Source of the DNA: Clostridia bacterium
GTDB lineage: Bacteria > Bacillota > Clostridia > TANB77 > CAG-465
Direction: 5' to 3'
Length of the DNA: 64,000 bases
Assembly: GCA_036635835.1 (NCBI GenBank)
Contig: JAVWPP010000001.1
Span: forward strand, 68,890 to 132,889
Shown: positions 684 through 36,723 of the stretch, one piece after another
Numbering within the stretch: the first letter of the stretch is position 1
How the letters are laid out: each line of letters begins with the position of its first letter
Position numbers and translations under genes: made by a program
The notes under the pieces: generated by a model
Told to the model about the DNA's origin: nothing
Database searches by the model: none
The model's input: only the letters and a program-made list of their open reading frames with translations

Positions 684-1541
684 TTATACAACTTCATTAA
701 ATAAGAATTTGATTTCTATAGGCTCATCATTATTAGGCACTTTCACACTCTTTATTGAAAAGCCAGCCATATATCCATGAGATAATTGTCCAACTTTAAA
801 AGTTGCTAATGTATTTATTTCTTGGTTTGGCTGTATCACCACAGGTCTACCCATTGCAAATGAACTACTTGATACTATTTCTCCATCATTTAAATGATAT
901 CCATAAATGCATTCGTTTTTCGAATCTGAATTAAGTGTAACTGGCTGATCATTGTTGTTTCTTATTTTAAGTTTCATTTTATAAGTAGTAACACCAAAAT
1001 TAACATCAACTAATTCTACAGATATTTTATTACTTATGAATTTTTTATTTAAAGTTGCTTTGTAAATATAATCGTCAAAAGATATAGTGTAATTTCTTGG
1101 CGAAAGTTCTCGAATTATAATATATTCCTCAAGCAATTGATCTTTTGAAGTCATTCTAACTCTATAATATCTTTCATTGTTTATAATTCCATTAATGTAA
1201 TTTGACGGTACTAAATCTACTCCTAATATTTTTTTACCTTCTAATAAGGCTTTTAAATTGTCTTCTGTAATACCCTTTTCTGTAATATATGTATTTGTCA
1301 ATTTAGAGTATATTTCTTTAATGTTAGCCCTTTTTAACAGGTCTGCAATCTCTTTTAAATAACTGTTTAAGTATTTATTATTAGAATCCGTTGCAGATGT
1401 ATATTGGCCAAATTTTAATTCTTGTGGTTTTTCTTTTTTAGGTGCCCATATCATAACAAGTGCAATTATTAAAATTAGTACAACAACTGCAATTAGAATG
1501 CTAAATAAAGTTACCTCTTTTTTTATATCTTTTTCTTCCAT
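684..1541 (-). CDS. Bitopic membrane protein with N-terminal TM anchor and a ~250-aa extracytoplasmic domain, function unknown; candidate VirB8-like or accessory component of the T4SS-like cluster
   Basis: ORF of 285 aa. Hydrophobic segment FSILIAVVVLILIIALVMIW near the N-terminus. 8-nt gap to the upstream gene. No recognisable catalytic motif. Confidence 0.5.
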   Translation of the reverse strand: MEEKDIKKEVTLFSILIAVVVLILIIALVMIWAPKKEKPQELKFGQYTSATDSNNKYLNSYLKEIADLLKRANIKEIYSKLTNTYITEKGITEDNLKALLEGKKILGVDLVPSNYINGIINNERYYRVRMTSKDQLLEEYIIIRELSPRNYTISFDDYIYKATLNKKFISNKISVELVDVNFGVTTYKMKLKIRNNNDQPVTLNSDSKNECIYGYHLNDGEIVSSSSFAMGRPVVIQPNQEINTLATFKVGQLSHGYMAGFSIKSVKVPNNDEPIEIKFLFNEVV

Positions 1542-1549
1542 TACATCAC

Positions 1550-2077
1550 CTATATTTCTAAATAACTAATTTTAAATACTTTACTTCTTGTATCTAATTG
1601 GAATCCTATGAAGGTATTTTCGCTGATTGTTTTAATTTCAGCTAAATACACTTCAATTCCATTTTTATCTGCTATTTTATATAATTTAAATAAATTATTT
1701 TCATTAATATAAAAGTCATTGTCTTTTGTTGATTTAAAGTTTTTAGATATATATTCTTTTATTTTTTTCTTATAATCAAAGAAGGAGTGTTCTTTTTTAA
1801 GCGATTTTGTAAGTACTGAATATGTAGTTTTATCGTCCTTAGATAATAATCCTTCTATGTACATATTCATAACGGTTTCCGCTCTATTAAACTGCGTGTA
1901 ATCTTTGATAAGGTTTTCATCTTTAATATATGATTTGTAATCTTCAATTTTTATTTCACTTTTTGTGGTTTTTGCATTTAAACTTATCAAACTTGAGATT
2001 CCCCATAAAAGAATAACTGTAAGTCCTATAATGGCAATTATCATATTAATATTTTTCTTTTTAATATTTTCAAACAT
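1550..2077 (-). CDS. Small bitopic membrane protein (N-terminal TM), function unknown; part of the T4SS-like operon
   Basis: ORF of 175 aa. TM segment MIIAIIGLTVILLWGISSLISL. K/E-rich soluble domain. 15-nt gap to the VirB6-like gene. Confidence 0.5.
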   Translation of the reverse strand: MFENIKKKNINMIIAIIGLTVILLWGISSLISLNAKTTKSEIKIEDYKSYIKDENLIKDYTQFNRAETVMNMYIEGLLSKDDKTTYSVLTKSLKKEHSFFDYKKKIKEYISKNFKSTKDNDFYINENNLFKLYKIADKNGIEVYLAEIKTISENTFIGFQLDTRSKVFKISYLEI

Positions 2078-2092
2078 TAACTACCTCCATAA

Positions 2093-4360
2093 TTATTGTG
2101 AATCTTCTATATTATCTTTTTTTCTTTTATTATCTATTGTTGTTTTTACTGATTTTTCTCTATTTTGATTTCCTCCAATAGTTTTATTTGCACTACTCTC
2201 ATAACTTACTTGCTCGCTGATTTTTTGTTGTAAATGCTCTTCATAATTTATTTGAGGTTCTATCATTTTAAGCTGTGCTTCTCTTCCGACATTTTTTCCT
2301 ATAGTTTCTGCTATTTTGTCTCCGCCTGAAATTAATGCACCAGATATTGCTGACATATCATTAAGAGATCCAGATGCACCTCCACCCATAGCTAAACCTG
2401 CAACTACTGTTGCTGGTGACATGATTGCTGCAATTGTTTTTCCTGCTAATTGTTTTTCTTGTTCTCTAAGCTGCATTTCAAGTTCTTGTACAGACTTGCC
2501 TGGTAAACCAGAACTTGTCTGAGCTTGTTTTGGTAATTCTGCATTTGCCGCTGCTTGAATTCCTGTGCCTTTAGTTAATCTGTCTGGACTTGCTGCACCT
2601 TTAATTGTACTTGACATAGTTGAAGTTTGGCTCTGCACTGCTTGTAATATTTTATCTAACGCAAGTGCTATTCTATTTACTTCCGGTGAAGCTGTTCCTG
2701 TAGCTTTCAATGCTTGATTTACATCATTCATATCTACTTTTCCATCTCCAATACCAGGCTGCACTGTTGAAGTTTGCCTAGTAGCAGATGGACCTACATA
2801 TGTTAACAGATCCTTATTTGCAACATCTGTTGGTAATTTAGGAGGTGCTGCATTTGGCTGAACTTCTCTTGCTTTAGCTTTTTCAAGCTGAGATCTAGTA
2901 GATTTAATTCCTTTTCTACCAGCTGCCATACCCGTAAAGTTGTCTTTTATATTTTTTGTTGCACCAGCTGCAAGTGAGAAACCTGCAAAACCAAGTTTTC
3001 CTGCGTTTTGTAGACTTCCTGCTTTGGAATCTGGTACTCCAACGAAATCTTTAATTATTGCTTCTACTCTAGTTAATGAGGCTATTGCAACCACTTCTAT
3101 AATTGCTATAAGACCAGCAACTTTATCATGCTGCGCTGCATTATCTCCCATTTGTGTATCTAAAGTAGTAATGCCAGCTTGTTTTGCTAAACTGTTTATA
3201 AGTATCATAGTGAAAAACATTATAAATGCATGTATAGATTGCATAAATACTGCAATTCCAAACTGCGTTAACCATTTTTCAAAAAGTCCGCCTTTTTGTC
3301 CTAATACTTTTTTAATTGTATCTATTCCTATTACAAACGGGAATAGCATACCTAAAATAAGGCAGTAGAATAACCTTTTAATATATAGTATCGTTAGTGC
3401 AATAGTCTGTCCTATCATAACTGCAAGAATAATTGTAGCCATAAGTTCCCCAGATACCGACCTTTGCAAATACATTAAAAACATACCTTCAAATCCATAT
3501 GCTTTTTCTTGTACCGTTTCTACTTGGTTTAACCCTTCATTAATAAGAATTGCACCAAAAGATACTCCTAGTACCGGGCCTAGTAATACGGTCGTTGCTG
3601 CGCCTACTGCAGCGCCTGCGACCCATGCTCCTAGTTTCTCCATAAAGGATAGTTCTTTATCTTTTAATAAAGTTATAGACACTGGTATTTCTTCTTTTTG
3701 CGCGGCTTGATATAGATTAGAGACTATTTGCTCGTTTAGAAAAAATATACCTGCCATAAGGAAATGACCTACAAACAGCAGTATTATACCGGTTAGCCAA
3801 GTTGCTATTGCTGTTTTATATTGTGCTTTTTGCTGCGCTGAAACTGATATTGCAAGCTTTATTCCAATTATTAAAGCAATTACAACAAACAGAGTTGCAA
3901 CAATTGACACGCCTGTGTAATATAACGGGCTGATAGCTTTAGATACTATTTCTATTAAATTAAAGCTTCCTCCAGGAGGTGCTTTAGCTGGATTAATAAA
4001 ATTAGGATCAAAGAATGGTATGATATTAAACACCATATGATATGGCATTGGAAAATACACTTCCGTATTTTCAGTAACTCCCATCATTGAGAATACAACA
4101 GATATAACTGATACGACCATATAAATAATGAATCTTATTAGTAGTGAAAGCATATCTATTATAGCTCCTGAAATAAAGCCAAGCGAAGTAGCTTTTTTCA
4201 ATATTTGATTTAGTATTGTAGTTTTTTGACCATTCTCGCCATCAATTAAAGCTGTATTTAATTCCGTATGTGTTATTTCTGCAAAAATAGTGTTTGTAGC
4301 CACTAATACTAAAGTTACGATTAGAGATACTATTATAATTTTTTTAAGTACCTTTTTCAT
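2093..4360 (-). CDS. VirB6/TrbL-like polytopic membrane protein (compare Tn916 Orf15, ICEBs1 ConG, pCW3 TcpH) with a long hydrophilic low-complexity C-terminal extension
   Basis: 755 aa. Cleavable signal peptide (…TNTIFA-EIT), N-terminal extracytoplasmic region, then 6 or more TM helices in the middle. The C-terminal ~300 aa are A/G/Q/T/S-rich low complexity. Sits immediately downstream of the VirB4-like ATPase, as in Gram-positive conjugation loci. Confidence 0.6.
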   Translation of the reverse strand: MKKVLKKIIIVSLIVTLVLVATNTIFAEITHTELNTALIDGENGQKTTILNQILKKATSLGFISGAIIDMLSLLIRFIIYMVVSVISVVFSMMGVTENTEVYFPMPYHMVFNIIPFFDPNFINPAKAPPGGSFNLIEIVSKAISPLYYTGVSIVATLFVVIALIIGIKLAISVSAQQKAQYKTAIATWLTGIILLFVGHFLMAGIFFLNEQIVSNLYQAAQKEEIPVSITLLKDKELSFMEKLGAWVAGAAVGAATTVLLGPVLGVSFGAILINEGLNQVETVQEKAYGFEGMFLMYLQRSVSGELMATIILAVMIGQTIALTILYIKRLFYCLILGMLFPFVIGIDTIKKVLGQKGGLFEKWLTQFGIAVFMQSIHAFIMFFTMILINSLAKQAGITTLDTQMGDNAAQHDKVAGLIAIIEVVAIASLTRVEAIIKDFVGVPDSKAGSLQNAGKLGFAGFSLAAGATKNIKDNFTGMAAGRKGIKSTRSQLEKAKAREVQPNAAPPKLPTDVANKDLLTYVGPSATRQTSTVQPGIGDGKVDMNDVNQALKATGTASPEVNRIALALDKILQAVQSQTSTMSSTIKGAASPDRLTKGTGIQAAANAELPKQAQTSSGLPGKSVQELEMQLREQEKQLAGKTIAAIMSPATVVAGLAMGGGASGSLNDMSAISGALISGGDKIAETIGKNVGREAQLKMIEPQINYEEHLQQKISEQVSYESSANKTIGGNQNREKSVKTTIDNKRKKDNIEDSQ

Positions 4361-4371
4361 ATAATCTCCTT

Positions 4372-6360
4372 CTACTGTGCTGATTGAGCATTCATATTTG
4401 CGAGTTTAGATAAGTTTGTTTCAACAAATTCAAACTCTTTTTGTGTAGGTTGAATAGCAATAACTGCAGACTCTTGACCTATTTTTATTAAGCCTTCACC
4501 TCTAACACATGTTAATAAGAATTGTGATTCTCCATCACTTAGCTTAAATACTTCTTTTAAATATTGTATTTCAGATTTATCTTGTGCTAAAAATAATTTA
4601 ATTTCAGAAGATGTTAAAACTGCTTGAGCTTCTTTTTTCTCATAAAAGTCCTGGAACTTTTGAGAAACAACTGTTAATGATACATTTCTTTTTCTAGCAC
4701 GTCTAGCCATTGTATTTAAGAACTGTACAGCTTCTGGATAATCTAGTAACATCCACGCCTCATCTACTAGTACTCTCTTCTTTTTAGCTTTTGTTTTATC
4801 TTCACTGTTTTTCTTAACATATTTTTCCCATATCCAAGAAAGTAGGATTTGCTGAGCAAGTGGTCTTGCAAATTTTTCTTCTAGCTGAGATATATTAATA
4901 TTTATAAATGGTGAACCTTCTAAAAGTTCAAATGTAGATTGTCCATCAAAGTATGCCATTTGCCCATCTAGTTTTCTTACATACTGTTTCATAACTTTTA
5001 CAAGGTAACTGTAGTGATAACTGTATGCGCCATTTTGATTTTCTCCTGCTTTAACTAAAAGCGTATCATACCAAGAACTAATTGTTGGCATGTCTTTCTT
5101 TGTTAAGCCGATTCTATTGTTTATTCCACTTGCACTATTAGAATCTATGTATATACTATTTACGTCATTATTTATACCATGCCTTGCATATTCCTCAGCA
5201 ACTATTTCTGCTATTATTTGTTTTGTTAACTCATTAACTTCTGAGCTTCTTGTTGCTCCACGAGCCATTGTAAGTAGTGCTTGTGTAACGTCCTCTATTT
5301 TATTTTCTACATTAAGAACTAATTTATCTTTACCTGTAATTTCATCTTTAGTTGTTTCTGTCTCAATATCAAAAATATTTATTACAGTATTACTATTTGG
5401 GCTTAAATTGATGTTTATACCGCATAAAGCTTCTGCAACAACAACATACTCACCCTCGGCGTCTAGTACTAAATTTTCTATACCCATAAGTACAGATGAT
5501 CTAGCCATTATAGTTTTGATTGTAACTGATTTTCCAGAACCTGATTTTCCAAATATAATCATATTATAATTAGTTAATGAAGAATGGAAATTATCAAAAA
5601 GCAGTGGTAAACCTGTTTGTTTATTCATTCCTATAGGAACTCCAATTGGATGTCCAACTTCTGCTGCTACAAATGGGAAAACTGTTGACATTGAACCTCT
5701 ATCAAAAGTATGTTTTCTTGTTATTTTATTATTGTTAAGCGGTAAATTAGATTGAAGCGCTTCTTCTTGTATTGCCCATGCTGCTTTTAGAGTGATCATA
5801 TTTTTTGATGCTTCCATAGCAAGCATTTCTGAAGATTTATCTAACTCTTCTTTGTTATATGCAAAAAGAGTAGCAATAATAGTAGCTTCAAATAATTTAT
5901 TATATCCTGCTGCTATCTGATCTCTTAACTGTTCTGCTTCAGATTGTTTAGCAGATAGTACAGATTCTCTATTGATATCTCCTCTATCTCTTGCTACATA
6001 TCTTTCTGCTTGTAATTCAACAATGGTTTTTCCTAAATCTTTTTGAGATATAGTTTCAGATATTGGATTAATATATACGGATGTATTTATATCTCCAAAC
6101 TCATATATATCTGCTAAAAAATATGGGAATATTGCTTGTCTTGGTATGGTTGTTAAATAGAAAGTTCTAGCGTACCTAGATACTTTAGAAAATATCTCTA
6201 AATAATCAAAATGAGTAGCATCTATTCCTGATGGAGATATTAAGTCTTTTAATCCTGATTTGTTTTGGTCTAAAAAGCTCATTTCTTTTTCTCCAGCGCT
6301 TATGATTTCTTCTTCTGTTTTAACTGCTTCATTTTTTTGTTTTTTCTTACTTCCAAACAT
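4372..6360 (-). CDS. VirB4/TrsE/TcpF-like T4SS ATPase (DUF87/AAA-like family)
   Basis: 662 aa. Walker A IFGKSGSGKSV followed by the VirB4-type VLDAEGEY box. Walker B / DEAW motif RVLVDEAWMLLD. C-terminal SQKFQDF. Membrane-machine gene context. Confidence 0.8.
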   Translation of the reverse strand: MFGSKKKQKNEAVKTEEEIISAGEKEMSFLDQNKSGLKDLISPSGIDATHFDYLEIFSKVSRYARTFYLTTIPRQAIFPYFLADIYEFGDINTSVYINPISETISQKDLGKTIVELQAERYVARDRGDINRESVLSAKQSEAEQLRDQIAAGYNKLFEATIIATLFAYNKEELDKSSEMLAMEASKNMITLKAAWAIQEEALQSNLPLNNNKITRKHTFDRGSMSTVFPFVAAEVGHPIGVPIGMNKQTGLPLLFDNFHSSLTNYNMIIFGKSGSGKSVTIKTIMARSSVLMGIENLVLDAEGEYVVVAEALCGININLSPNSNTVINIFDIETETTKDEITGKDKLVLNVENKIEDVTQALLTMARGATRSSEVNELTKQIIAEIVAEEYARHGINNDVNSIYIDSNSASGINNRIGLTKKDMPTISSWYDTLLVKAGENQNGAYSYHYSYLVKVMKQYVRKLDGQMAYFDGQSTFELLEGSPFININISQLEEKFARPLAQQILLSWIWEKYVKKNSEDKTKAKKKRVLVDEAWMLLDYPEAVQFLNTMARRARKRNVSLTVVSQKFQDFYEKKEAQAVLTSSEIKLFLAQDKSEIQYLKEVFKLSDGESQFLLTCVRGEGLIKIGQESAVIAIQPTQKEFEFVETNLSKLANMNAQSAQ

Positions 6361-7995
6361 TTATATTCCTCCTTCGTTATTATTATTTGTTACAGCTTCT
6401 TTGTTTAAGTATGGGTTGTTATTGCGCATTTCTTCTAATTTTTGTTCTTTTGAAATCTCCGTACTTTGTACTGGCTGTTGTTTAATTACTTGTTCTAGTG
6501 GTCTTGCAACTTGTGGCTGAGTAGCTTGTGGCTGTTTAATTACCTGTTCTAACGGCCTTGCAACTTGCCCCTGCTGTGTAACTATCTGAGGCTGCTTAAC
6601 TACTTGTTCTAATGGTTTTGCAACTTGTGGCTCTTGTACTTGACTTGCTTGTGGAGCTTGAGGTGTATTTGGCTGCGCTGTTACTTGCTGAGCTTGTGGC
6701 GGCGTAGCTACTGGCCTTTGCACTTGTTGCTGCTGAACTACTTGTCTTTGCTGCATTGCTGCTGCTCTTTCGAATTCTTCTTGCCTTAACTTAGCCTGTC
6801 TTTCTCTTTCTTCTTCTTTTACTCTTTCTGCTCTATCTATGTGTTTTTTTATGATTATTTTAGTCAATGCATCTTTTGTTTCTAAGTCTATATCTGCTTC
6901 TGCAACATATTTCATAGCTAATTTATCTACATCTGCTTCTTCACTTGCTGCTTGCTCACCTGCTATAGGTAAAGAGCCTTTAGCTAGACCTTCTGTGATC
7001 ATTTGCTGTAATCTTTTTGAGCTTTCTTTTTGATATTCTTTAGAAAGAACTTCATCTTTTTTCTCTTCTATGTCTTTTGATGTTGAATATAGTCTATAGA
7101 ATTCTGATGATAATGCTTGTTTAACATCTATTATTTTTTCATCATCTCTGTTGTATGAAATATATAATAGTTCTGCTAGCTGGTTAGAATCTATTACTTC
7201 TCCTGAAACTGAGCAGGCTTGAAGTGCACTTATTATTGAGCGGGCTCTGGTGTAGAGCTCGGTATAGCACATTTGAGTTATTTCTTGTGGAGTGAATTTT
7301 TCTAAGTTTGTTATTTCGCTTTTATTATATGAAAAAATTATATAAAATTTTCTTTGAAGCATTTGCTTGTTACTACTCATTTTTTCTACATAATTTGTTA
7401 TATCATTTGCATACGAAAACATATTGCTATATTTTTGATAATTAAGCTGCGCATCAAACAAGTCTTTATGTGATGTTGTAGGCTCTTGTATTGCTTTTTT
7501 CAAATCTTGCTCATATGTTTTACATTGTAACTCTATATCATCTATTTTTTCTTTATATATTCTCATACTACTTCTTAAATCTACAGCTCTTGCTTGAACG
7601 TAAATTTGTATTGGACATCTTAATGTATTTAAAAAAGTTATAAAACCTTCTTCTACCGCCATTTGTTCTATTTCTGACATTAAATCATAATTTATACCTT
7701 TACACTGAACAACCATGGTATATACATTTCCACCTTTTTGTATTATCATATCATCTGAAATTTTATCAAATTCCATGAAATTAACTATATCAACCATTGG
7801 TACAGCTTTTTTAGCAAAAATCTTTTCTTCTTCTTTATCTACTTCGCCTTTTCCTGTTTCTTTTGTTTTAGGCGGTTTTTTATCTGTCATTATAAATACT
7901 ATTATTACAACTATTACAACTACTGCTCCTAGAATCCATATTAATTGATTTTCCATTTGACTTGTCTCCTTTTTTAGACATATGCTATTTAGCAT
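6361..7995 (-). CDS. Bitopic coiled-coil membrane protein, paralog of 8140..9375, with C-terminal Q/P-rich 17-aa tandem repeats; T4SS-like cluster component of unknown role
   Basis: 544 aa (true start possibly the internal MENQLIWILG). N-terminal TM. Conserved block YTMVVQCKGINYDLMSEIEQ and C-terminal ADIDLETKDALTKIIIKKHI shared with the 411-aa paralog. Its stop directly abuts the VirB4-like start codon. Confidence 0.55.
   Translation of the reverse strand: MLNSICLKKETSQMENQLIWILGAVVVIVVIIVFIMTDKKPPKTKETGKGEVDKEEEKIFAKKAVPMVDIVNFMEFDKISDDMIIQKGGNVYTMVVQCKGINYDLMSEIEQMAVEEGFITFLNTLRCPIQIYVQARAVDLRSSMRIYKEKIDDIELQCKTYEQDLKKAIQEPTTSHKDLFDAQLNYQKYSNMFSYANDITNYVEKMSSNKQMLQRKFYIIFSYNKSEITNLEKFTPQEITQMCYTELYTRARSIISALQACSVSGEVIDSNQLAELLYISYNRDDEKIIDVKQALSSEFYRLYSTSKDIEEKKDEVLSKEYQKESSKRLQQMITEGLAKGSLPIAGEQAASEEADVDKLAMKYVAEADIDLETKDALTKIIIKKHIDRAERVKEEERERQAKLRQEEFERAAAMQQRQVVQQQQVQRPVATPPQAQQVTAQPNTPQAPQASQVQEPQVAKPLEQVVKQPQIVTQQGQVARPLEQVIKQPQATQPQVARPLEQVIKQQPVQSTEISKEQKLEEMRNNNPYLNKEAVTNNNNEGGI
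6420..6665. repeat. Imperfect ~51-54-nt tandem repeats (about 3 units) encoding QVARPLEQVIKQPQ-type peptide repeats
   Basis: DNA units ...cttgttctagtggtcttgcaacttgtggctg... recur three times. The protein shows QVAKPLEQVVKQPQ / QVARPLEQVIKQPQ / QVARPLEQVIKQQP. Confidence 0.7.
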
Positions 7996-8139
7996 TAGAA
8001 ATTATTTATATTTTTTTATATTTTCATTACATACTATTATACTAAAATCTTATCATAAGTAGATTTTCTTTGCAAGAACTTTTAGTGATTTTCTACATGT
8101 TTTGCATATTAAAAAAAACATAAAAAAGGCAACCCAATA

Positions 8140-9375
8140 TTAAAATATTGAATTGCTTTTTATTGCAGGTGTAACAATACCTGTTTTACTATCAACCTTT
8201 GTTGTTTGATTTATGCTAGTATCTAGCTCAACTCCAGCTGCTTTTATTTTTTCTATATGTTTTTTAACAATTAATTTAGTTAATGCATCTTTTGTTTCTA
8301 GATCTATGTCTGCACCAGCTATAATTTTAACTGCCATTTTATCTATTTTCTCATCTCGCTCTACATCTTCGTTTACTTCTGGTTTAAGCCTGCCTTTAGC
8401 TTCATCTTGAGCTCTTTTTATTTTTTGCTTTTCTGCTTTTTCGCTTAAATATTCATTACGTAAAAACTCATTCTTCTGATTCATGCTGTCTCTAGTTGAT
8501 GAATATACATTGTAAAATCCAGAATCTACGGCTTGTTTTATTTCTATGATCTTATCGTCATAAGTATTTAGTGAAACATACAATAAGTCTACTAATTCAT
8601 TACTTGTAAGAACCTTTGAAACTACTTGACATGCATTTAATGCATCTATAAGTTCGCAAGCTTTTTTATATAATACGGAATACGCATATTCTGCAATCTT
8701 TTTGGCTTTTACTTTTTCATCTTGTGGTATTTCAGACTTATCAAAAGAAAATATAATGTAAAACTTTCTTTGAAGCATTCTTTTATTAAATGTAACTTTT
8801 TCAGTATATCTAGTTATATCATCTGCATATTGATACATATTATTTGTTTGCTGTATTTTCATTTGTGCATCATATATTTTTTTAGAATCTATCTCCATAC
8901 TTTGCATAAGCACTTGATATTCTCTCTCCGCATCTTCGCATTTAATTCTTAAGCTTTCTACTTTATTTTTATACATTTCTAAATTTTCTTTTAATTCTAT
9001 TGTTCTAGATTGAACATAAATTTGAATTGGGTAATCTATTAATTCCATACAATCAACGAAACCTTTTTCTACTTTTAATTGTTCTATTTCGGACATCAAA
9101 TCATAATTTATGCCTTTACACTGAATTATCATAGTATATCTACCATCTGAGTTTTGTACAATCATATTATCTAAAATTCTATCAAATTCTACAAACTTAG
9201 AAAGATTAACAAGTTCAGGAGGCTTAGCTTTTTTCTTAGGTTCATTGCTCTCAGGCATATTTGGATTTTTTTTATTTGCGGCTTTCTTTGCAGATTGTTT
9301 ATCTGTAACCATAAGAAATATAAATCCACCTACAGAAAGAACCAAAACTAATATTGTTATTAATTCAAAATTCAT
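8140..9375 (-). CDS. Bitopic coiled-coil membrane protein, paralog of 6361..7995
   Basis: 411 aa. N-terminal TM ITILVLVLSVGGFIFLMV. Shares the YTMIIQCKGINYDLMSEIEQ and ADIDLETKDALTKLIVKKHI blocks with the 544-aa protein. Its start ATG overlaps the stop of the upstream 125-aa gene (TAATG). Confidence 0.55.
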   Translation of the reverse strand: MNFELITILVLVLSVGGFIFLMVTDKQSAKKAANKKNPNMPESNEPKKKAKPPELVNLSKFVEFDRILDNMIVQNSDGRYTMIIQCKGINYDLMSEIEQLKVEKGFVDCMELIDYPIQIYVQSRTIELKENLEMYKNKVESLRIKCEDAEREYQVLMQSMEIDSKKIYDAQMKIQQTNNMYQYADDITRYTEKVTFNKRMLQRKFYIIFSFDKSEIPQDEKVKAKKIAEYAYSVLYKKACELIDALNACQVVSKVLTSNELVDLLYVSLNTYDDKIIEIKQAVDSGFYNVYSSTRDSMNQKNEFLRNEYLSEKAEKQKIKRAQDEAKGRLKPEVNEDVERDEKIDKMAVKIIAGADIDLETKDALTKLIVKKHIEKIKAAGVELDTSINQTTKVDSKTGIVTPAIKSNSIF

Positions 9376-23392: not shown

Positions 23393-23746
23393 TTATATAA
23401 TTGATTGTGCTGCTGTAACAATGAATCCAACTAATGGTTCTGCTAAGAACACTATAATTGCACCTACAATTAGTATAACTGTTTGTTTTTTGATATCTGC
23501 TTTTGAATCTGCAGATGCAAACATATATCTAAGTCCTGCAAATATAATTGCTGCGAATGCAAGTACTTGTATTACAGTTGTTATTGTACTCCATACGTTT
23601 CCCATTGTTGCTCCAACACCTTCTGCAGCTGTTCCTCCGTTTGGTAATGATGTATCAATTCCTGTTCCTGCTGCAAATACAGTTGTTAAACATAATATCA
23701 ACATTAAAACTATAGGTAAAACCTTAACTAATTTTTTCATATTCAA
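23393..23746 (-). CDS. Secreted pilin-like small protein (VirB2/TrbC-like topology), copy 1 of a near-identical tandem pair
   Basis: Signal peptide ...TTVFA-AGT. Motif AGLRYMFASADSKADIKKQ. More than 95% nucleotide identity to 23890..24237. Confidence 0.55.
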   Translation of the reverse strand: MNMKKLVKVLPIVLMLILCLTTVFAAGTGIDTSLPNGGTAAEGVGATMGNVWSTITTVIQVLAFAAIIFAGLRYMFASADSKADIKKQTVILIVGAIIVFLAEPLVGFIVTAAQSII

Positions 23747-23889
23747 GCCTCCTTTGCTTATACATGTATTTAGTATATCAATACAAATTTAATTAGTCAA
23801 TACTATATTTGTAGTTTTGCTATATTTGTTTTTTAATTTTGACAAAAAAAATGTGATGAATAAATTCACCACATTATTATAATAAATTA

Positions 23890-24237
23890 TTATATAATTG
23901 ATTCTGCTGCTGTAACTATGAAACCAACTAATGGTTCTGCTAAGAACACTATAATTGCACCGACAATTAGGATAACTGTTTGTTTTTTGATATCTGCTTT
24001 TGAATCTGCAGATGCAAACATATATCTAAGTCCTGCAAATATAATTGCTGCGAATGCAAGTACTTGTATTACAGTTGTTATTGTACTCCATACGTTTCCC
24101 ATTGTTGCTCCAACGCCTTCTGCTGCTGTTCCTCCTGCTGGTAATGATGTATCAATTCCTGTTCCAGCTGCAAATACAGTTGTTAAACATAATATTAACA
24201 TTAAAACTACTGGTAAAACTTTAATAAATTTTTTCAT
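23890..24237 (-). CDS. Secreted pilin-like small protein, copy 2 of the tandem pair
   Basis: Differs from copy 1 by only a few residues (N/A at position 34, Q/E near the C-terminus, and the signal-peptide start). Confidence 0.55.
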   Translation of the reverse strand: MKKFIKVLPVVLMLILCLTTVFAAGTGIDTSLPAGGTAAEGVGATMGNVWSTITTVIQVLAFAAIIFAGLRYMFASADSKADIKKQTVILIVGAIIVFLAEPLVGFIVTAAESII

Positions 24238-24401
24238 AAAAATTCCTCCTAATCTATTCTATATTTAAATTATATCACAAAACTCTATAAAATGTCAACC
24301 ATTTTTATTTATTCTATCTACTTTTGCCTATTTATATACTCTTATGGCTATCTAATTGACTTTTTTTTATTTATTTATATTATTAAATTAAGGAGGCTAT
24401 A

Positions 24402-24938
24402 ATGAAAATAATAATTTATAAAATATTTTTATCTTTGCTTGTAGCAATTATAATAATTACTGGTTTATTAACTAAAACAAATACTGATTCTAGTAAATCT
24501 ACTGGTTTTATTTGGCCAAGCGATGTCCATAAAATCTCTTCTCCCTACGGAAAAAGAAATTTATTTACGGTGCATTTTCATAATGGTATTGATATACCTG
24601 CAAGGCAAGGCAGTAATATATATGCAATTTCAGATGGCGTTGTTGAATTTACAAATTTTAAAGGCTCTTTCGGATATACAATTGTGCTTAAACATGATGG
24701 CGAATATAAGAGTATGTACTGCCACGTTGATCCTAATTTTTTAGTTATAGAAGGGCAGTTTGTTAAGCAAGGTGATATAATTGCTAAAATAGGACCTGCT
24801 AGACTGCCAAACTCCGCTACAAAATATTATATTTTTAACGGATATAAGTCTAATGGCATGACTACTGGGCCGCATCTTCATTTTTCTACTATTTTTAAAG
24901 GAAAATATGTGAATCCACAGTCTTTAACGTATAAATAA
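24402..24938 (+). CDS. M23/LytM-family peptidoglycan endopeptidase with N-terminal membrane anchor
   Basis: HFHNGIDI (HxxxD) and GPHLHFS (HxH) zinc-ligand motifs; RBS AGGAGG. Confidence 0.8.
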   Translation: MKIIIYKIFLSLLVAIIIITGLLTKTNTDSSKSTGFIWPSDVHKISSPYGKRNLFTVHFHNGIDIPARQGSNIYAISDGVVEFTNFKGSFGYTIVLKHDGEYKSMYCHVDPNFLVIEGQFVKQGDIIAKIGPARLPNSATKYYIFNGYKSNGMTTGPHLHFSTIFKGKYVNPQSLTYK

Positions 24939-24971
24939 AGCATCAAGATTTCTCCTGATGCCATTTATTAT

Positions 24972-25631
24972 CTATTCTTGTTCTGCTTGTTCTTCTTTTT
25001 CTTCTTTATCTAATAATTCTAATTTAGAAACTGAAACTTCATATGCAAGGTTCTTTACAACAGTACCATCTTCATATTTTTTTTCATATTCTCTACTTTG
25101 AACTCTTCCTTCGATTTTAATATTTGTTCCTACAGGCAAGTTTTCGCAGAATTTAGCGTTTCTTCCCCACATTATACAAGGTATATAATCTGATTTATTA
25201 TATGCTCTATTTACAGCTATTAAAACATCTGCAATTTCTCTACCTAGAGGTGTTTTTCTGTATACTGGTTTTTTACAAACAAAACCATTTAATAAAGCTT
25301 CATTTTTAGTTTTTGCTTCTTCTTCTACCTCAATAGTTCTTAGCTCTTTGATAAATATAGATAATACTAATTTACTTTTTTCTTCACGATACTTATTATA
25401 TGATCTAAACTGACCTTCAATTTCAATAAGTAATCCCGGTTTAAACGTTGCTAAATCTATAAGTCTTTCTGAAACTATAACTGGTATTTTATCATCAGCT
25501 CCACTAAGTCTACTTACACTTATATCAAATATGTAAAACTTTTCACCATATACTTCATGACTTATTTGAAGTTCTGAAGCTATAGTACCTCCTATTTTTA
25601 CAATATTATTTTCACTATAATTATTTAACAC
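24972..25631 (-). CDS. Hypothetical protein with two OB-fold-like halves, the second SSB/PriB-like; acidic C-terminal tail
   Basis: 219 aa. Weak SSB-like pattern in the C-terminal half; EEKEEQAEQE tail. Not a canonical SSB. Confidence 0.3.
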   Translation of the reverse strand: MLNNYSENNIVKIGGTIASELQISHEVYGEKFYIFDISVSRLSGADDKIPVIVSERLIDLATFKPGLLIEIEGQFRSYNKYREEKSKLVLSIFIKELRTIEVEEEAKTKNEALLNGFVCKKPVYRKTPLGREIADVLIAVNRAYNKSDYIPCIMWGRNAKFCENLPVGTNIKIEGRVQSREYEKKYEDGTVVKNLAYEVSVSKLELLDKEEKEEQAEQE

Positions 25632-31196: not shown

Positions 31197-32906
31197 TTAT
31201 TTATTTTTCTTAATTTCTATAAATCTTTTTATTTTCATTGTTGTAGTCTTTTCAAATTCGCCATCTTTTATTTTTATGTTTTTCATAGCTTTATATGGTA
31301 CTAAAGTTCTATTGATATCCTTAATGTCTTTCCATATTTTTTCTTCTAAGTTTTCATTTGAAGGTCTATCTTTACCATATTTCTCTTTAATATATTCTTC
31401 ATCTAAGCTAACAATAACCGCAACTTCTGGATCTGTAGCATCTTGCTCATTTTCCTTAGAATATACAAGTGACTCTTTTACTTCTGGAATTTCATTAACT
31501 AAAAATTCTAATTCTTCTGGGAATATTTTTTTACCGTTTTTTGTTACAATTAGATTTTTAGCTCTTCCACAAACAACTAAATTATTTTCTTTATCTAAAT
31601 ATGCTAAATCTCCAGTGTGGAACCAGCCATCTATTACGCATTCTGCTGTAAGTTCTGGTGCTTCATAATATCCAAGCATTAAATTAGTGCCTTTTGTTAT
31701 TATTTCGCCTATACCATCATCATTTACATTATCTAATTTTACTTTCATGCCTTTTGATGCTATTCCAACTGTACCAGCTTTTCTATTTGAAAGCGGTGTT
31801 CCGCATATTAGTGGAGCAGTTTCTGTAAGTCCAAAACCTTGTAAAACAGCGATTCCTAAGCCTTCATAAGCTTTAATTAAATTAGCATCTATAGGAGCTG
31901 AACCAGTTAGAACATACTTTAATCTACCACCAAGTTTTTGATGTATTTGTTTAAACATTATACGTTTTATCTTAATACCAACTTTATCTAGTCCATTAGT
32001 TATTTTAACCATTTTAGTAACTAGTTCTTTTTTACCTTGAGCAATTAAAGTTTTGTCTATTTTTTTATATAATTTGTCTAAAAGAAGCGGTACAGCTACT
32101 AGCATAGTAGGCTTGTAATCTTCCATATTAGTAGAAATATACTTAAGACCTTGGCATACTCCTACACTTGCTCCATTATATAGGGCAAACATATACGTAC
32201 CAGTTAATTCATATGTGTGATGTATTGGCAAAATAGAAATCAATTTATCTTCTTTTGTTAGAGGTAAATAGTCTCTTGCTCCATCTAAATTACCTATTAC
32301 ATTGCCGTGACAAAGCATAACACCCTTAGCTGCTGCAGTTGTACCAGATGTAAATAGTAATATTTTGAACTCTCTTGGATCTATTTTTATACTTTCATAA
32401 ACTTGATTTCCAGCAGCTCTTAATTCTCTACCTTCTTTAATTATTTTATCTAGTGTAAGATCATTTGGAGTTTCTGCTTCCTCACTATACATTTCTATAA
32501 AATGCTTAATTGTTGGAACCTTATCCCTAATTTCTGCTATGCATTCTGCTTTTTTAGGAGCATATATTATAGCTTCTGCCTTAGATCTTACAATTAAATT
32601 TTGAATCTCATTAGCAGGCAGCTCTTTATCTAGCGGAACTACTATACCAACTGCTGTTGTAACAGCTAAATATGATACTATCCACTGATAACTATTCTCA
32701 CCTATTACAGCCACTTTTTTACCTTGTAAATGATATTTTTCTATTAAAGCAGTTGCTAAATCTTGAATATTCTCTTTTAAATCTGAATATAAATAATCTT
32801 TATATCCTTTTTCTGTTATTCTTCTTTCTGTTATAGCGACTCTTTCCATGTAATTTTCCCATCCGAAGTCTACCATATCTTTAAATGACTTAATATTATT
32901 ACTCAT
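31197..32906 (-). CDS. AMP-dependent synthetase/ligase (long-chain acyl-CoA synthetase, FadD-like), paralog 1
   Basis: TSGTTAAAKGV AMP-binding motif; YGLTE; GWFHTGD. Confidence 0.85.
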   Translation of the reverse strand: MSNNIKSFKDMVDFGWENYMERVAITERRITEKGYKDYLYSDLKENIQDLATALIEKYHLQGKKVAVIGENSYQWIVSYLAVTTAVGIVVPLDKELPANEIQNLIVRSKAEAIIYAPKKAECIAEIRDKVPTIKHFIEMYSEEAETPNDLTLDKIIKEGRELRAAGNQVYESIKIDPREFKILLFTSGTTAAAKGVMLCHGNVIGNLDGARDYLPLTKEDKLISILPIHHTYELTGTYMFALYNGASVGVCQGLKYISTNMEDYKPTMLVAVPLLLDKLYKKIDKTLIAQGKKELVTKMVKITNGLDKVGIKIKRIMFKQIHQKLGGRLKYVLTGSAPIDANLIKAYEGLGIAVLQGFGLTETAPLICGTPLSNRKAGTVGIASKGMKVKLDNVNDDGIGEIITKGTNLMLGYYEAPELTAECVIDGWFHTGDLAYLDKENNLVVCGRAKNLIVTKNGKKIFPEELEFLVNEIPEVKESLVYSKENEQDATDPEVAVIVSLDEEYIKEKYGKDRPSNENLEEKIWKDIKDINRTLVPYKAMKNIKIKDGEFEKTTTMKIKRFIEIKKNK

Positions 32907-33062
32907 TATTTCCTCCTATAATTATTACCTAGTGCTAATATACACTATTTTTTAAATTTTGTCAATACATTTGCATTTTAAAAATATATTTTAGCAAGTT
33001 AAAGTAAAAATATAAGTGCAAGAATTCAATAATTTAGAATACTTGCACTTATGCTTTTTATA

Positions 33063-35006
33063 TTACTTGTTTTTGGGTTTATCTATTTCTTTATTTTTAG
33101 CTTGTTTTTTTATTTCTTTTACTTTTGTTGCTTTTACATCTTTTACTTTTGTTTTTTTCTTCTCTTCATCCTTCTTAATTTCAGCAAATCTTTTTATTTT
33201 CATAGTAGTAGTCTTTTCAAATTCATCTGATTTAATTTCTAGATGCTTAATTGCTTTATATGATGTTAAAGTTCTATTTACTTCTTTGATTTCTTTCCAA
33301 ATTATATTATATATTTCTTCTTCGTTTAAATCTCCATGGTTTTCTTTAATGTACTCTAAATTAGGAATAACCTTAACTGAAATACTTAATTCCTGTTTAT
33401 CTTCATTCTTACCATACACCATACATTCTTTTACGTATGGTATTTTAGCTACAATCATTTCTAATTCTTCTGGATAAATATTTTTGCCGTTTTGCGTAAC
33501 TATTACATTTTTACATCTGCCAGTAATGAATAAATATCCTTCATCGTCTAAGTATCCAATATCTCCAGAATGGAACCATCCATCTATTACGCATGCATCG
33601 GTTTCTTCTTTGTTTTCATAGTATCCAAGCATTAAAGTGGTACTTTTAATTAATATTTCACCTTCGCCATTTTCATTTGGATCTTTTATTTTTAATTCTG
33701 CGCATGGTACAGCTTTACCAGTAGAACCTACCTTAGGCTTGTAGTCTGGTGTAAATGCTGCAATAGGGGCAGTTTCTGTTAATCCATATCCTTGTAAAAA
33801 CATGATTCCTATGTCCTCTAGCCATTTACCTATTTTAGGATCTATTGGAGCTGCTGCTGAAACTATTAATCTAATATTTCCACCTAAATTATCATAAATT
33901 TCACTAAAGACTTTCTTTTTTAAATCTATATTTACAGTTTTTAATGCATTAGTAACATGTATCATTGAATTAACTAAGTTTTCTTTTTTACTTTTTTGTA
34001 TATTTGCAATTATTTTTTTATATAAATTCTCTACAAGTACTGGTACTGCTAAAAGTGCTGTAGGTTTTGTTTCTTTTAAATTTGTAACAATGTATTTTAA
34101 GCCTTCGCATATTGCAACAGATGCACCACCATACATTGGCATAAGGAAGCCAATTGTTGATTCATATGTATGATGAAGTGGTAATACAGAGAAAAATCTA
34201 TCCTTATCGTCCATATATGCATATGATAATGCACCAAAAATGTTATCTGTTAGGTTTCTGTTACATATCATAACACCTTTTGACTGAGCTGTTGTTCCAG
34301 ATGTAAAAATTAAAACTTTAAACTCATCTGGGTCTATTTTTATTTTTCTAAAATCTTCATTGCCTGTTTTAACAAGTTGTTTACCTACGTTTATTACATA
34401 CTCAAGTCCTACGTCTTTGCCTTCTATTTCACTGTCTGAATTCATTTCTATAAAATAATCTACATCTGGTAAATTGTCTTTTACTTTATTTATTATATCT
34501 TTTTTTCTTTTAGAATAAATAACCGCAGATGCTTTTGCTCTTTTTACTACATTTTCTATTTCATTTGCAGGTAAATCCTTGTCTACAGGTACTGCAATTC
34601 CAGTTCCACAAAGCATTGCCATGTATGAAGTATACCAGTGATATGTGTTTTCTCCTATGATAACAACTCGTTTATCTTTTAAGCCAAGTAGCTCGTTAAG
34701 CGCTGTGCCAAGGCCAATTACGTCTTCTTCAAATGCTTTATATGTTATTTCTGTATATGGCTGTTTATGATCGAATTTCTCAAGAATTACTGTATTTGAA
34801 GCGTATTTTTTGGCTGAATCGTAGAACATATCTCTTATTGTTTTATATCTAGTTCTTTCGTAGATTTTGCCTTCTTTTTTTTCTTTGTTTTTAGCTTGAG
34901 CTGCTAAATCTAAATTAACTTTAATTTCATCTATGTTTAATAAGCCAGGCATTTTAAATTTTGGAAACTTAAAATCTGGGATCTTTATATCTTTTAATAT
35001 TCTCAT
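33063..35006 (-). CDS. AMP-dependent synthetase/ligase, paralog 2, with N-terminal extension and lysine-rich C-terminal tail
   Basis: TSGTTAQSKGV, YGLTE, GWFHSGD motifs; K-rich tail. Confidence 0.85.
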   Translation of the reverse strand: MRILKDIKIPDFKFPKFKMPGLLNIDEIKVNLDLAAQAKNKEKKEGKIYERTRYKTIRDMFYDSAKKYASNTVILEKFDHKQPYTEITYKAFEEDVIGLGTALNELLGLKDKRVVIIGENTYHWYTSYMAMLCGTGIAVPVDKDLPANEIENVVKRAKASAVIYSKRKKDIINKVKDNLPDVDYFIEMNSDSEIEGKDVGLEYVINVGKQLVKTGNEDFRKIKIDPDEFKVLIFTSGTTAQSKGVMICNRNLTDNIFGALSYAYMDDKDRFFSVLPLHHTYESTIGFLMPMYGGASVAICEGLKYIVTNLKETKPTALLAVPVLVENLYKKIIANIQKSKKENLVNSMIHVTNALKTVNIDLKKKVFSEIYDNLGGNIRLIVSAAAPIDPKIGKWLEDIGIMFLQGYGLTETAPIAAFTPDYKPKVGSTGKAVPCAELKIKDPNENGEGEILIKSTTLMLGYYENKEETDACVIDGWFHSGDIGYLDDEGYLFITGRCKNVIVTQNGKNIYPEELEMIVAKIPYVKECMVYGKNEDKQELSISVKVIPNLEYIKENHGDLNEEEIYNIIWKEIKEVNRTLTSYKAIKHLEIKSDEFEKTTTMKIKRFAEIKKDEEKKKTKVKDVKATKVKEIKKQAKNKEIDKPKNK

Positions 35007-35016
35007 AAAATCACTC

Positions 35017-36723
35017 CTACTTTTTCACTTCAGCAAATCTTTTTATTTTCATTGTTGTTGTTGTTTCAAATTCGCCTTCTTTTATTTTTAAATTTTTCAT
35101 TGCTTTATATGGTACTAAAGTTCTATTAATGTCTTTGATATCTTTCCATATTTTTTCTTCTAAAACCTCATTTGAAGGTCTTGTTTTGCCGTATTTTTCT
35201 TTTATATATTCTTCATCAAGTGTAACTATAACGCCAACCGCTGGGTCTAGTGGGTCTTCTTCGTTTTCTTTTTCATAAACTAGTGACTGCTCTACTTCTG
35301 GTATGTTATTTACAAGGCCTTCTAATTCTTCTGGGAAAATCTTTTTACCGTTTTTTGTTACAATAACATTTTTTGCTCTTCCACATAAATAGAAATTACC
35401 TTTTTTATCTTGATAAGCTAAGTCTCCTGTGTGAAACCACCCATCTATTATTACTTCGTTTGTTTTTTCTTCATTTTCATAATATCCAAGCATAACATTT
35501 GGACCTTTAGTAATTATTTCTCCAACGCCTTCTTCATTTACATCGAAAAGTTTTGCTTTAGAACATTCTATTGCTTTTCCAATAGTACCAGGTTTTCTAT
35601 TTTTATATGTTGTAGCACAAACAAGCGGAGCAGTTTCAGTAAGTCCAAAACCTTGTAAAACCTTGAAACCAAAGGCTTCAAATCCTTTTATAACTTCTGG
35701 ATCCATTGGCGCAGAACCAGTTAAAACATATTTTAAATTTCCGCCTAAATTATCATGAATCTCTTTAAATATAGCTTTTTTACAGTCTATACCTACTTTT
35801 TGTAATGAATCTGTGATTTTTATAGCCTTAAAAACCATTTTTGTTTTCCCTTTTTCGTCTACAGTTTTCAATATTTTTTTATAAATTTTATCTATAAGTA
35901 ATGGTACAGATACAATTATACTTGGACTAACTTCTTGTATGTTTTTAGATATATACTTTAGTCCTTGACACACTGCAACGCTAGCTCCAGAATAGATTGC
36001 ATACATATATGTAACTGTTGATTCGTACGTATGATGAATTGGTAGCACTGAAAAAAATCTATCTTTTGAAGTTATTGGCATAAGTACAGGCGCAGATTCC
36101 ACATTAGATAATATATTTTTATGCGAAATTTTTACACCTTTTGCATCTGAAGTTGTTCCTGAAGTAAACAGTAAAACTCTGAAATCTTCTGCTTTTACAT
36201 CTGCTTTTTCATATGAGTCATCTCCTGAAACTCTTAGCTCACGGCCTTCTTTTATAACTGACTCATACGTTTTATCTATTATATCCATATTTGCTTCATC
36301 GCTATACATTTCTATAAAATGTTTAACTGTAGGAACTTTATCCTTTAAGTTATTTATATATTCTTCTTTTCTGCTTGAATAAATGATAGCTTCTGCTTTA
36401 GATCTAACTAGTAAATTTACTATTTCGTTTTCTGGAAGCTCTTTATCTAAAGGAACTACTATTCCTGTTGCAGATGTTACTGCCATGTATGAAACAAACC
36501 ATTTATAGCTGTTTTCACCTATTATAGCTACTTTTTTATTATATAATTTGTACTTAGTTATAAGCGCTGTAGCTAAATCTATAGTATCTTCTTTTAAATC
36601 TGCATAAGTATAATTTATAAACTCTTTTTTAGAATCTCTTTTCTCCATAATAGCTACATTTTTAGCGTATTTTTCTCCGTTAATTAACACCACATCTCTA
36701 AGTGTTTTTATTTGATTTTTCAC
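35017..36723 (-). CDS. AMP-dependent synthetase/ligase, paralog 3
   Basis: TSGTTSDAKGV, FGLTE, GWFHTGD motifs. Confidence 0.85.
   Translation of the reverse strand: MKNQIKTLRDVVLINGEKYAKNVAIMEKRDSKKEFINYTYADLKEDTIDLATALITKYKLYNKKVAIIGENSYKWFVSYMAVTSATGIVVPLDKELPENEIVNLLVRSKAEAIIYSSRKEEYINNLKDKVPTVKHFIEMYSDEANMDIIDKTYESVIKEGRELRVSGDDSYEKADVKAEDFRVLLFTSGTTSDAKGVKISHKNILSNVESAPVLMPITSKDRFFSVLPIHHTYESTVTYMYAIYSGASVAVCQGLKYISKNIQEVSPSIIVSVPLLIDKIYKKILKTVDEKGKTKMVFKAIKITDSLQKVGIDCKKAIFKEIHDNLGGNLKYVLTGSAPMDPEVIKGFEAFGFKVLQGFGLTETAPLVCATTYKNRKPGTIGKAIECSKAKLFDVNEEGVGEIITKGPNVMLGYYENEEKTNEVIIDGWFHTGDLAYQDKKGNFYLCGRAKNVIVTKNGKKIFPEELEGLVNNIPEVEQSLVYEKENEEDPLDPAVGVIVTLDEEYIKEKYGKTRPSNEVLEEKIWKDIKDINRTLVPYKAMKNLKIKEGEFETTTTMKIKRFAEVKK

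Follow-up and report, generated by a model that had tools for sequence, protein, structure and literature searches.

Tandem TrsD-type proteins, putative stand-alone versions of the VirB4 N-terminal segment, in a chromosomal type IV secretion locus of gut Clostridia

The 64,000-nt stretch of Clostridia bacterium DNA analysed here (the window; contig JAVWPP010000001.1) contains a type IV secretion system (T4SS) locus with two adjacent, paralogous genes, whose products have 411 and 531 residues (copy 1 and copy 2). Both are likely TrsD-type proteins, that is, stand-alone versions of the VirB4 N-terminal segment that act as a membrane-anchored adaptor of the ATPase. Their membership in this family is well supported at the sequence level, because three kinds of models, an invariant synteny, a complementary truncation of the neighboring ATPase and the published description of TrsD agree. 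An earlier, sequence-only reading of the window had found no match of the pair to any named T4SS family; this no longer holds, given the TrsD/TraD assignment (PF26593) and the matches to models of the VirB4 N-terminus that we describe below.

Copy 1 is encoded at 8140-9375 and copy 2 at 6361-7956; both genes, their parts and their immediate neighbors lie on the minus strand. We delimited copy 1 with the list of open reading frames, BLASTP between the copies, the PF26593 'TraC-like' annotation, an AlphaFold2 (AF2) model and an analysis of junctions and identity, and copy 2 with its ribosome-binding site, BLASTP and the NCBI annotation. The longest reading frame of copy 2 (6361-7995) would give the 544 residues assumed previously, but its true length is probably 531, because an AGGAG ribosome-binding site lies 8-9 nt 5' of the ATG at 7956 and NCBI calls a 531-residue product.

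That the two proteins are paralogs is borne out by BLASTP (E 8e-106, 168 of 378 positions identical, 44%). Identity is uneven along the copies, reaching 55.6% in the N-terminal and 52.6% in the C-terminal part of the core and 53.5% in a C-terminal helical box, with 32% in a helical hairpin and 17% in the linker. For this reason the earlier estimate of about 55% applies to the conserved blocks (53-56%) and not to the whole length. The two motifs quoted for the pair, YTM[IV][IV]QCKGINYDLMSEIEQ and ADIDLETKDALTK[IL]I[IV]KKHI, are indeed found in both copies.

Copy 1 begins with a transmembrane helix (residues ~3-27, 9295-9369), recognized by AF2 and hydrophobicity and followed by the flank DKQSAKKAANKK. 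A disordered linker leads into a conserved α/β core (residues 56-292, 8500-9210; mean AF2 confidence, pLDDT, of 82), where the homology to TrsD and the VirB4 N-terminal segment lies. Into this core is inserted an antiparallel helical hairpin (residues 128-195, 8791-8994, from the AF2 model), which pSK41 TrsD does not have. The C-terminal helical box (residues 336-378, 8242-8370, containing ...DKMAVKIIAGADIDLETKDALTKLIVKKHI...) is conserved across the gut-Clostridia subfamily to which the pair belongs, and a short tail completes the protein. Copy 2 has the same layout, with its transmembrane helix at residues ~4-29 of the 531-residue product (7870-7947, from hydrophobicity; flank DKKPPKTK), and adds a Q/P-rich tail of about 150 residues. 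Since each copy has one strongly hydrophobic segment, at the N-terminus, and no second such segment, the proteins are bitopic, as had been proposed. The long helical or coiled-coil stretches noted earlier are also predicted by AF2, as the hairpin and as further helices at residues 295-379 of copy 1.

Evidence for the family assignment comes from Pfam, from NCBIfam and from profile-profile comparisons. In precomputed annotation (E <= 1e-5), PF26593 is recorded on the 411-residue protein and on a 462-residue, assembly-truncated long copy in a related locus (L003). The TrsD proteins of pSK41/pGO1 and the TraD proteins of pIP501-type plasmids (NF041427) carry the same tag; of 19 pSK41-type TrsD/TraD proteins that a search with pSK41 TrsD retrieved, 18 had it, and the one without it was a 156-residue fragment. 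Against the NCBIfam model of full-length VirB4, NF045975 (894 positions), the window proteins match positions 95-268 and 92-305. The same model is matched by 18 of the 41 members of our first family alignment (best E 4e-9) and by 31 of the 57 members of a deeper one (best E 1e-7), at model positions ~92-270 wherever positions were shown. Among these 57, ten also match the TrsD model NF041427 (best E 2.4e-6, below its curated cut-off of 200 bits), three the CD1110 VirB4 model and two the VirB4 model TIGR00929. No unrelated family recurs among the scanned members as the VirB4 and TrsD models do.

In profile comparisons, the link to TrsD and VirB4 emerged with the deeper alignment, built from an exhaustive search; the first clue had been the complementary coverage of NF045975 by the window proteins and the neighboring ATPase. 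In hhalign, the deep family profile aligned to the TrsD alignment with an E-value of 8.3e-5; the 165 aligned columns take in almost the whole of TrsD, with the hairpin as an insertion. Compared with three full-length VirB4 N-termini, the same profile gave P 3e-4 within the first 122 alignment columns.

The neighboring ATPase provides the complementary observation. It is a short VirB4/TrsE-like protein of 662 residues (4372-6360), the presumed partner of the TrsD-like proteins, and it matches NF045975 at positions 263-891 and the CD1110 VirB4 model at positions 180-730 of 752. Its Walker A motif, at residue 271, falls into the range of residues 265-272 that it shares with pSK41 TrsE and with the ATPases of Clostridium botulinum and Clostridium perfringens, compared to 417-469 in full-length CD1110 VirB4. 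This shift of 150-200 residues roughly matches the length of the TrsD-like core once the hairpin is left out. The window ATPase thus appears to lack the first ~150-200 residues of full-length VirB4, which is the part that the family members match. Neither copy is itself a VirB4/TraC ATPase, a possibility that we ruled out as neither has a P-loop or a match to DUF87 or AAA_10, all of which are found in the 662-residue neighbor.

Several observations weigh against this assignment. The PF26593 match is a precomputed annotation, from a model absent from the Pfam copy that we searched, and none is recorded for the intact 531-residue product. The E-values of the window proteins against NF045975 are only 1.3e-3 and 2e-2 and their matches fall below every curated cut-off; the best profile-profile probability against TrsD is 61%; and comparisons of a shallow family hidden Markov model (HMM) or of its hhalign profile with pSK41 TrsD, or with single full-length VirB4 proteins or VirB4 N-termini, were not significant. 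Further, pSK41 TrsD is only about half as large as the window proteins and has no membrane anchor, a difference that is architectural and not evidence against homology. Finally, no experiment defines the function of TrsD-like proteins; TrsD has been described as a remote homolog of the VirB4 N-terminus without assigned function (PMC12102498).

Other searches contributed little. NF041427 matched neither window protein, and the local Pfam copy (without PF26593) and PHROGs yielded nothing useful for either. A homolog search with the N-terminal 400 residues of a Lactococcus lactis plasmid VirB4 returned no match, not even to the query itself. Papers on 'TraD' of pELF and pNP40 concern unrelated proteins.

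Among the closest known parallels is pSK41, where trsB (pilin-like), trsC (VirB3-like), trsD (227 residues) and trsE (a 672-residue DUF87 ATPase) are colinear with the window genes. TrsD and the window proteins share the motif block G-[IV]-N-x-[DE]-L-[ML]-x3-EQ, and the partner ATPase resembles that of the window in having ~670 residues and a Walker A motif near residue 270. The difference lies in what surrounds the core: TrsD has ~225 residues and no hydrophobic segment, whereas the window proteins add the membrane anchor, the 68-residue hairpin insertion, the C-terminal box and, in the long copy, the Q/P tail, and they form a tandem pair. Intermediate in size are a 'TraC family protein' of C. 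botulinum pCBG (257 residues) and a protein of C. perfringens pJFP838A (312 residues), which the family HMM matches with E-values of 1e-14 and 3e-33 and which reach hhalign probabilities of 96.5-99.4% against the family profile. The C. botulinum protein has an N-terminal hydrophobic segment like the window proteins and a weak match to PF11130 (TraC_F_IV). These clostridial relatives and those on Bacillus pXO1-type plasmids differ from the window proteins in their length (257-312 residues), in lacking the C-terminal box and tail, and in being plasmid-borne and single-copy. In full-length VirB4/TraC proteins, namely the CD1110 family, the VirB4 of mycoplasma integrative and conjugative elements (NF045975) and R388 TrwK, the matched region is the N-terminal part, a segment whose length of ~150-200 residues corresponds to the portion missing from the short ATPase. 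Unlike this segment, the window proteins are separate polypeptides, and they have no P-loop. The boundaries of these modules are plastic, as shown by the VirB3-VirB4 fusions of some systems of mating-pair formation (MPF) type T (PMC4027160), although these are fusions, the opposite of the fission considered here.

Gene order supports the same relationship, and membership of the pair in a T4SS cluster, proposed from the sequence, has stood up well. In the window, a PrgI/VirB3-like small membrane protein (9375-9752, recognized by profile matches and the junction sequence) is followed by copy 1, copy 2 and the ATPase. We scored synteny and copy number on 80 fetched species-level loci, and in all 80 the order is one or more pilins, PrgI-like, TrsD-like and ATPase, and then a protein like the 755-residue one of the window. 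The order PrgI/VirB3-like, short gene, ATPase is found on pCBG, pJFP838A and pSK41 as well. The junctions in the window are tight: PrgI stop and copy 1 start codons overlap (TAATG), so that the two genes are translationally coupled, and copy 2 ends directly before the ATPase start codon, with the GGAGG ribosome-binding site of the ATPase located inside the last codons of copy 2. Judged from sequence, such junctions are consistent with a stoichiometric complex. Between the copies, a terminator-like hairpin of 12 pairs with a T-run (8129-8156), of a kind not expected in shuffles of the region, overlaps the copy 1 stop codon and is separated from copy 2 by a 183-nt AT-rich spacer. Hairpin and spacer could give the pilins, PrgI and copy 1 an expression level other than that of copy 2 and the ATPase.

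These observations suggest a model for Gram-positive T4SS of the MPF-FATA (pGO1/pSK41-like) type, in which VirB4 would be split over two genes. The short ATPase (4372-6360) would comprise the remaining N-terminal domain and the motor domain, and the gene upstream of it would supply the first ~150-200 residues. To this detached piece, the subfamily would have added an N-terminal membrane helix in N-out/C-in orientation, the helical hairpin, the C-terminal helical box and a disordered tail. The TrsD-like proteins would then act in trans as a membrane-anchored adaptor that docks the ATPase ring to the translocon and to the PrgI/VirB3-like protein. The solved Gram-negative machines have VirB4 N-terminal domains that are membrane-embedded and join both protomers of a dimer; those of the inner ring contact VirB3 and those of the outer ring VirB8 (PMC12857230). 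Because the VirB4 N-terminal domain binds the membrane and VirB3, an adaptor role in trans, as the docking module of the short ATPase, seems by analogy the most likely one for the TrsD-like proteins. The earlier proposal of an inner-membrane scaffold was thus loosely right, insofar as the proteins are a membrane-anchored part of the T4SS, but they are better described as a putative detached N-terminal module of the ATPase. If the adaptor model is true, they offer a natural in-trans membrane-docking module of VirB4, which could be used to dissect the attachment of VirB4 to VirB3.

The pair had also been considered novel and unique to this cluster, a view that its distribution contradicts: the family occurs in hundreds of species and also on plasmids of Clostridium, Bacillus and Staphylococcus. 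Among clusters of 90% identity, 1,902 are related to the 411-residue protein at E <= 1e-3. With the family profile, we found 1,282 representatives at 50% identity, of which 497 reach E <= 1e-10 and 145 reach E <= 1e-30. A scan with one genome per species yielded 293 confirmed loci, nearly all from uncultured gut Clostridia or from metagenome-assembled genomes (MAGs) of Bacillota (for instance Clostridium sp. CAG:508, CAG:465 and CAG:921). The window region itself is identical to contigs of two assemblies labeled 'MAG: Clostridia bacterium', GCA_036667975.1 and GCA_036637655.1 (RR922_00835, RR922_00840). In tblastn searches, the copy-1-type gene and the ATPase matched Bacillus plasmids, for the ATPase including Bacillus anthracis pXO1.

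The finding itself is modest, since both the TrsD family and its link to VirB4 had been reported before and the subfamily occurs very commonly; TrsD was the most abundant T4SS component in the Patescibacteria genomes surveyed in a 2025 study (PMC12102498). Recognizing the pair as members of the TrsD family removes a false claim of novelty, and what is unusual here is only the lineage-specific tandem duplication and the repeat-rich tail, both modest novelties. Beyond this, model coverage, the Walker A shift and synteny spell out the relationship to a split VirB4 for a subfamily of gut Clostridia that is very large and unnamed. This subfamily has traits that are not described in the TrsD literature examined: the membrane anchor, the hairpin insertion, the C-terminal box and a variable tail with a conserved tip.

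The setting of the locus is chromosomal. The cluster lies directly 3' of rpsB-tsf-pyrH-frr-cdsA-rseP, and the other window reading frames that we tested are housekeeping genes. The tested window reading frames, and the 10 kb downstream in related loci, yielded neither a relaxase nor a VirD4-type coupling protein. A chromosomal T4SS without a nearby coupling protein, present in at least 293 species-level genomes, resembles the T4SS of Patescibacteria, in which virB4 and the coupling protein gene often lie far apart (PMC12102498). The Patescibacteria system is like that of the window in being chromosomal, in having VirB2-like pilins, PrgI/VirB3, TrsD and VirB4, and in belonging to a streamlined genome (PMC12102498). 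It differs in coming from another phylum, the relatives of the window being uncultured gut Clostridia.

Two copies side by side are exceptional, as each of the 80 species-level loci has a single gene (0 of 80 with two). The tandem arrangement recurs in three close relatives (L092, L093, L094). In a neighbor-joining tree, P0002, P0004 and P0005 group with the 411-type in a long-branched clade, and the 531-type branches at the base of the single-copy family, next to P0006, P0008 and P0011. The tandem pairs of the relatives and the tree topology together indicate a duplication older than this species, and the pair appears to derive from one tandem duplication common to a small clade. The 531-residue copy seems to have kept the ancestral long tail and the tight ATPase junction, and the 411-residue copy, which would have lost the tail, the PrgI junction; by sequence, copy 1 is the more divergent of the two.

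It might be that the family assignment is right and one of the two copies is redundant or decaying. That a single gene evidently suffices in the 80 other loci would fit, as would the broken long copy of L092, which is interrupted into products of 76 and 293 residues, the degenerate tip of the long copy in the window, and the position of the 411-type, without tail and tip, on a long branch. Yet both copies are intact in the window and in two identical strains (L001, L002), both types persist in tandem in the three close relatives, and orthologs of each type occur in several other assemblies. In addition, all 35 invariant columns of the 41-sequence alignment are retained in both copies, which argues against simple decay. 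We therefore consider redundancy unlikely. The interruption of the long copy of L092 (8407-9516 of that locus) is due to a frameshift or to pseudogenization.

Any division of labor between two retained copies is our inference. The VirB4 of canonical machines is a hexamer of dimers. We offer as a speculation, more doubtful than probable by a wide measure, that the copies are specialized for two non-equivalent VirB4 positions, one copy for each, with the tail-less copy coupled to PrgI and the long-tailed one to the ATPase, and that this happens within a non-conjugative chromosomal T4SS, conserved in hundreds of uncultured gut Clostridia with small genomes, like that of Saccharibacteria epibiosis. 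In Saccharibacteria, a T4SS is required for epibiotic growth (Southlakia epibionticum; PMC12102498).

The C-terminal tail of copy 2 (6364-6801), identified from its composition and the family alignment, is of low complexity, with 24% Q and 10% P. Within it, three imperfect repeats with a 14-residue core, QVA[KR]PLEQV[VI]KQ[PQ][QP], are encoded at 6472-6513, 6526-6567 and 6586-6627 (span 6472-6627), at DNA periods of 60 and 54 nt and with 83-90% DNA identity between units; a further 36 residues follow the last repeat. The earlier description of three 17-residue repeats of ~51 nt was thus right in their number, but there are no clean 17-residue units, and Tandem Repeats Finder reported no array in the region. 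Between strains, the repeat region is identical in L001, L002 and the window. In L003 and L093, runs of N fall exactly into the copy 2 tail, from which we conclude that the repeat region breaks short-read assemblies, and the sole scorable difference is one 12-nt indel in the Q/P tract between L003 and the window. In the region 11420-13182 of L003, the N-run gives rise to spurious gene calls of 462 and 91 residues; the corresponding region of L093 is 3110-4945.

Across the subfamily, the tail after the C-terminal box is of low complexity and varies from 4 to 224 residues. It usually ends in an acidic-hydrophobic tip (...SSEDDIIV, ...ENDSIV, ...DESLIN), which is conserved in most members, is missing together with the tail from 411-type copies, and is degenerate in the window (...NNNNEGGI, 6361-6390). 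Richness in Q and P is confined to the small clade of the 531-type, with a combined fraction of 0.32-0.36 compared to at most 0.22 elsewhere. To judge from its sequence, the conserved tip after a tail of variable length looks like a tethered docking motif. This would suit a regulator, in which the detached module competes with or gates VirB4-VirB4 or VirB4-VirB3 contacts and tail and tip recruit another factor, and the terminator-like hairpin between the copies would permit the different dosage that such a role might involve. We think this improbable, for the one-to-one synteny and the translational coupling with PrgI and the ATPase, seen in all 80 loci, suggest a stoichiometric structural subunit, and the ATPase is without the homologous segment, so that there is nothing to compete with.

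The orientation of the proteins in the membrane bears on yet another interpretation, along the lines of the sequence-only reading, which would place the pair outside the cytoplasm as a bitopic scaffold akin to VirB8 or VirB10, with the Q/P repeats in the cell wall. The single N-terminal membrane helix of each protein and the location inside a T4SS cluster are compatible with this, and Pro/Gln-rich repeats are common in wall-spanning regions. However, in each copy a net-negative stub of about 2-4 residues lies N-terminal to the membrane helix and a lysine-rich flank C-terminal to it, an arrangement that by the positive-inside rule predicts an N-out/C-in topology. Core, hairpin, C-terminal box and Q/P repeats are therefore predicted to be cytoplasmic and not extracellular or periplasmic, in agreement with the homology to the cytoplasmic VirB4 N-terminal domain. 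The recurrent matches to this part of VirB4 and to TrsD, which has no membrane helix, likewise speak against a location outside the cell. Further, no match to VirB8, VirB10, TcpC or PrgL was obtained with Pfam or NCBIfam for the window proteins or for the 41 and 57 family members, as had been judged by eye, and no VirB8-like structure was among the Foldseek matches. An extracytoplasmic scaffold is thus very improbable. Of the specific candidates, we ruled out VirB8-like proteins (PrgL, TcpC, TraM) by the predicted cytoplasmic location of the C-terminal domain and the lack of an NTF2-like fold among the Foldseek matches. VirB10-like proteins were ruled out as there is no TrbI/VirB10 match, the region after the core is helical or disordered, and no folded domain follows the C-terminal Q/P tract.

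Foldseek searches of the PDB with the full-length AF2 model and with the core alone gave no significant match, and no solved VirB4 was among the matches. The non-significant ones (BAR, SNARE, FemX, cytochrome) were driven by the helical hairpin. PDB sequence searches, both with the single sequence and with the family profile, gave nothing beyond low-complexity or coiled-coil noise. That the pair could be unrelated coiled-coil membrane proteins of the SMC, chemoreceptor or BAR kind, which merely lie in the cluster, is suggested by the long predicted helices and by BAR, SNARE and chemoreceptor structures as top Foldseek matches, but is effectively refuted, as these matches all have E > 0.01 and TM-scores <= 0.3 and none is significant, the conserved part is the α/β core (53-56% identity) and not the helices (26-32%), and the gene order with PrgI and the ATPase does not vary. 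Individual SMC- or chemoreceptor-like matches were, for instance, the structure 2ch7 (E 0.69, TM-score 0.12) and an archaeal SMC-related model matched by one of the 57 family members (E 2e-3), neither of them significant.

Turning to the remainder of the locus, the three genes 3' of the ATPase (684-4360, minus strand) encode proteins of 755, 175 and 285 residues without a Pfam match, and many related loci conserve these genes and their synteny. Their products could be VirB6/TrsF-like and other components of the channel. The T4SS locus of the window is split. Its other part (23393-25631) comprises an SSB gene (24972-25631, minus strand), an M23 peptidase gene (24402-24938, plus strand) and two genes for TrbC/VirB2-type pilins (23890-24237 and 23393-23746), which bring the VirB2-like pilin genes of the window to four in total. 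This part is located about 12.4 kb upstream of the block formed by pilin, pilin, PrgI, TrsD and ATPase (9375-10939 portion). The two are separated by a housekeeping run from gdpP through dnaB, tilS, ftsH, rpsB, tsf, pyrH, frr and cdsA to rseP; in the relatives L004 and L092, the two T4SS halves are contiguous. The SSB protein encoded beside the pilin genes has an N-terminal extension of ~100 residues, its SSB domain occupying residues 110-206 of 219. Elsewhere in the window (31197-36723, minus strand), three AMP-binding, acyl-CoA synthetase-like genes, with products of 569, 647 and 568 residues, form a tandem array of paralogs.

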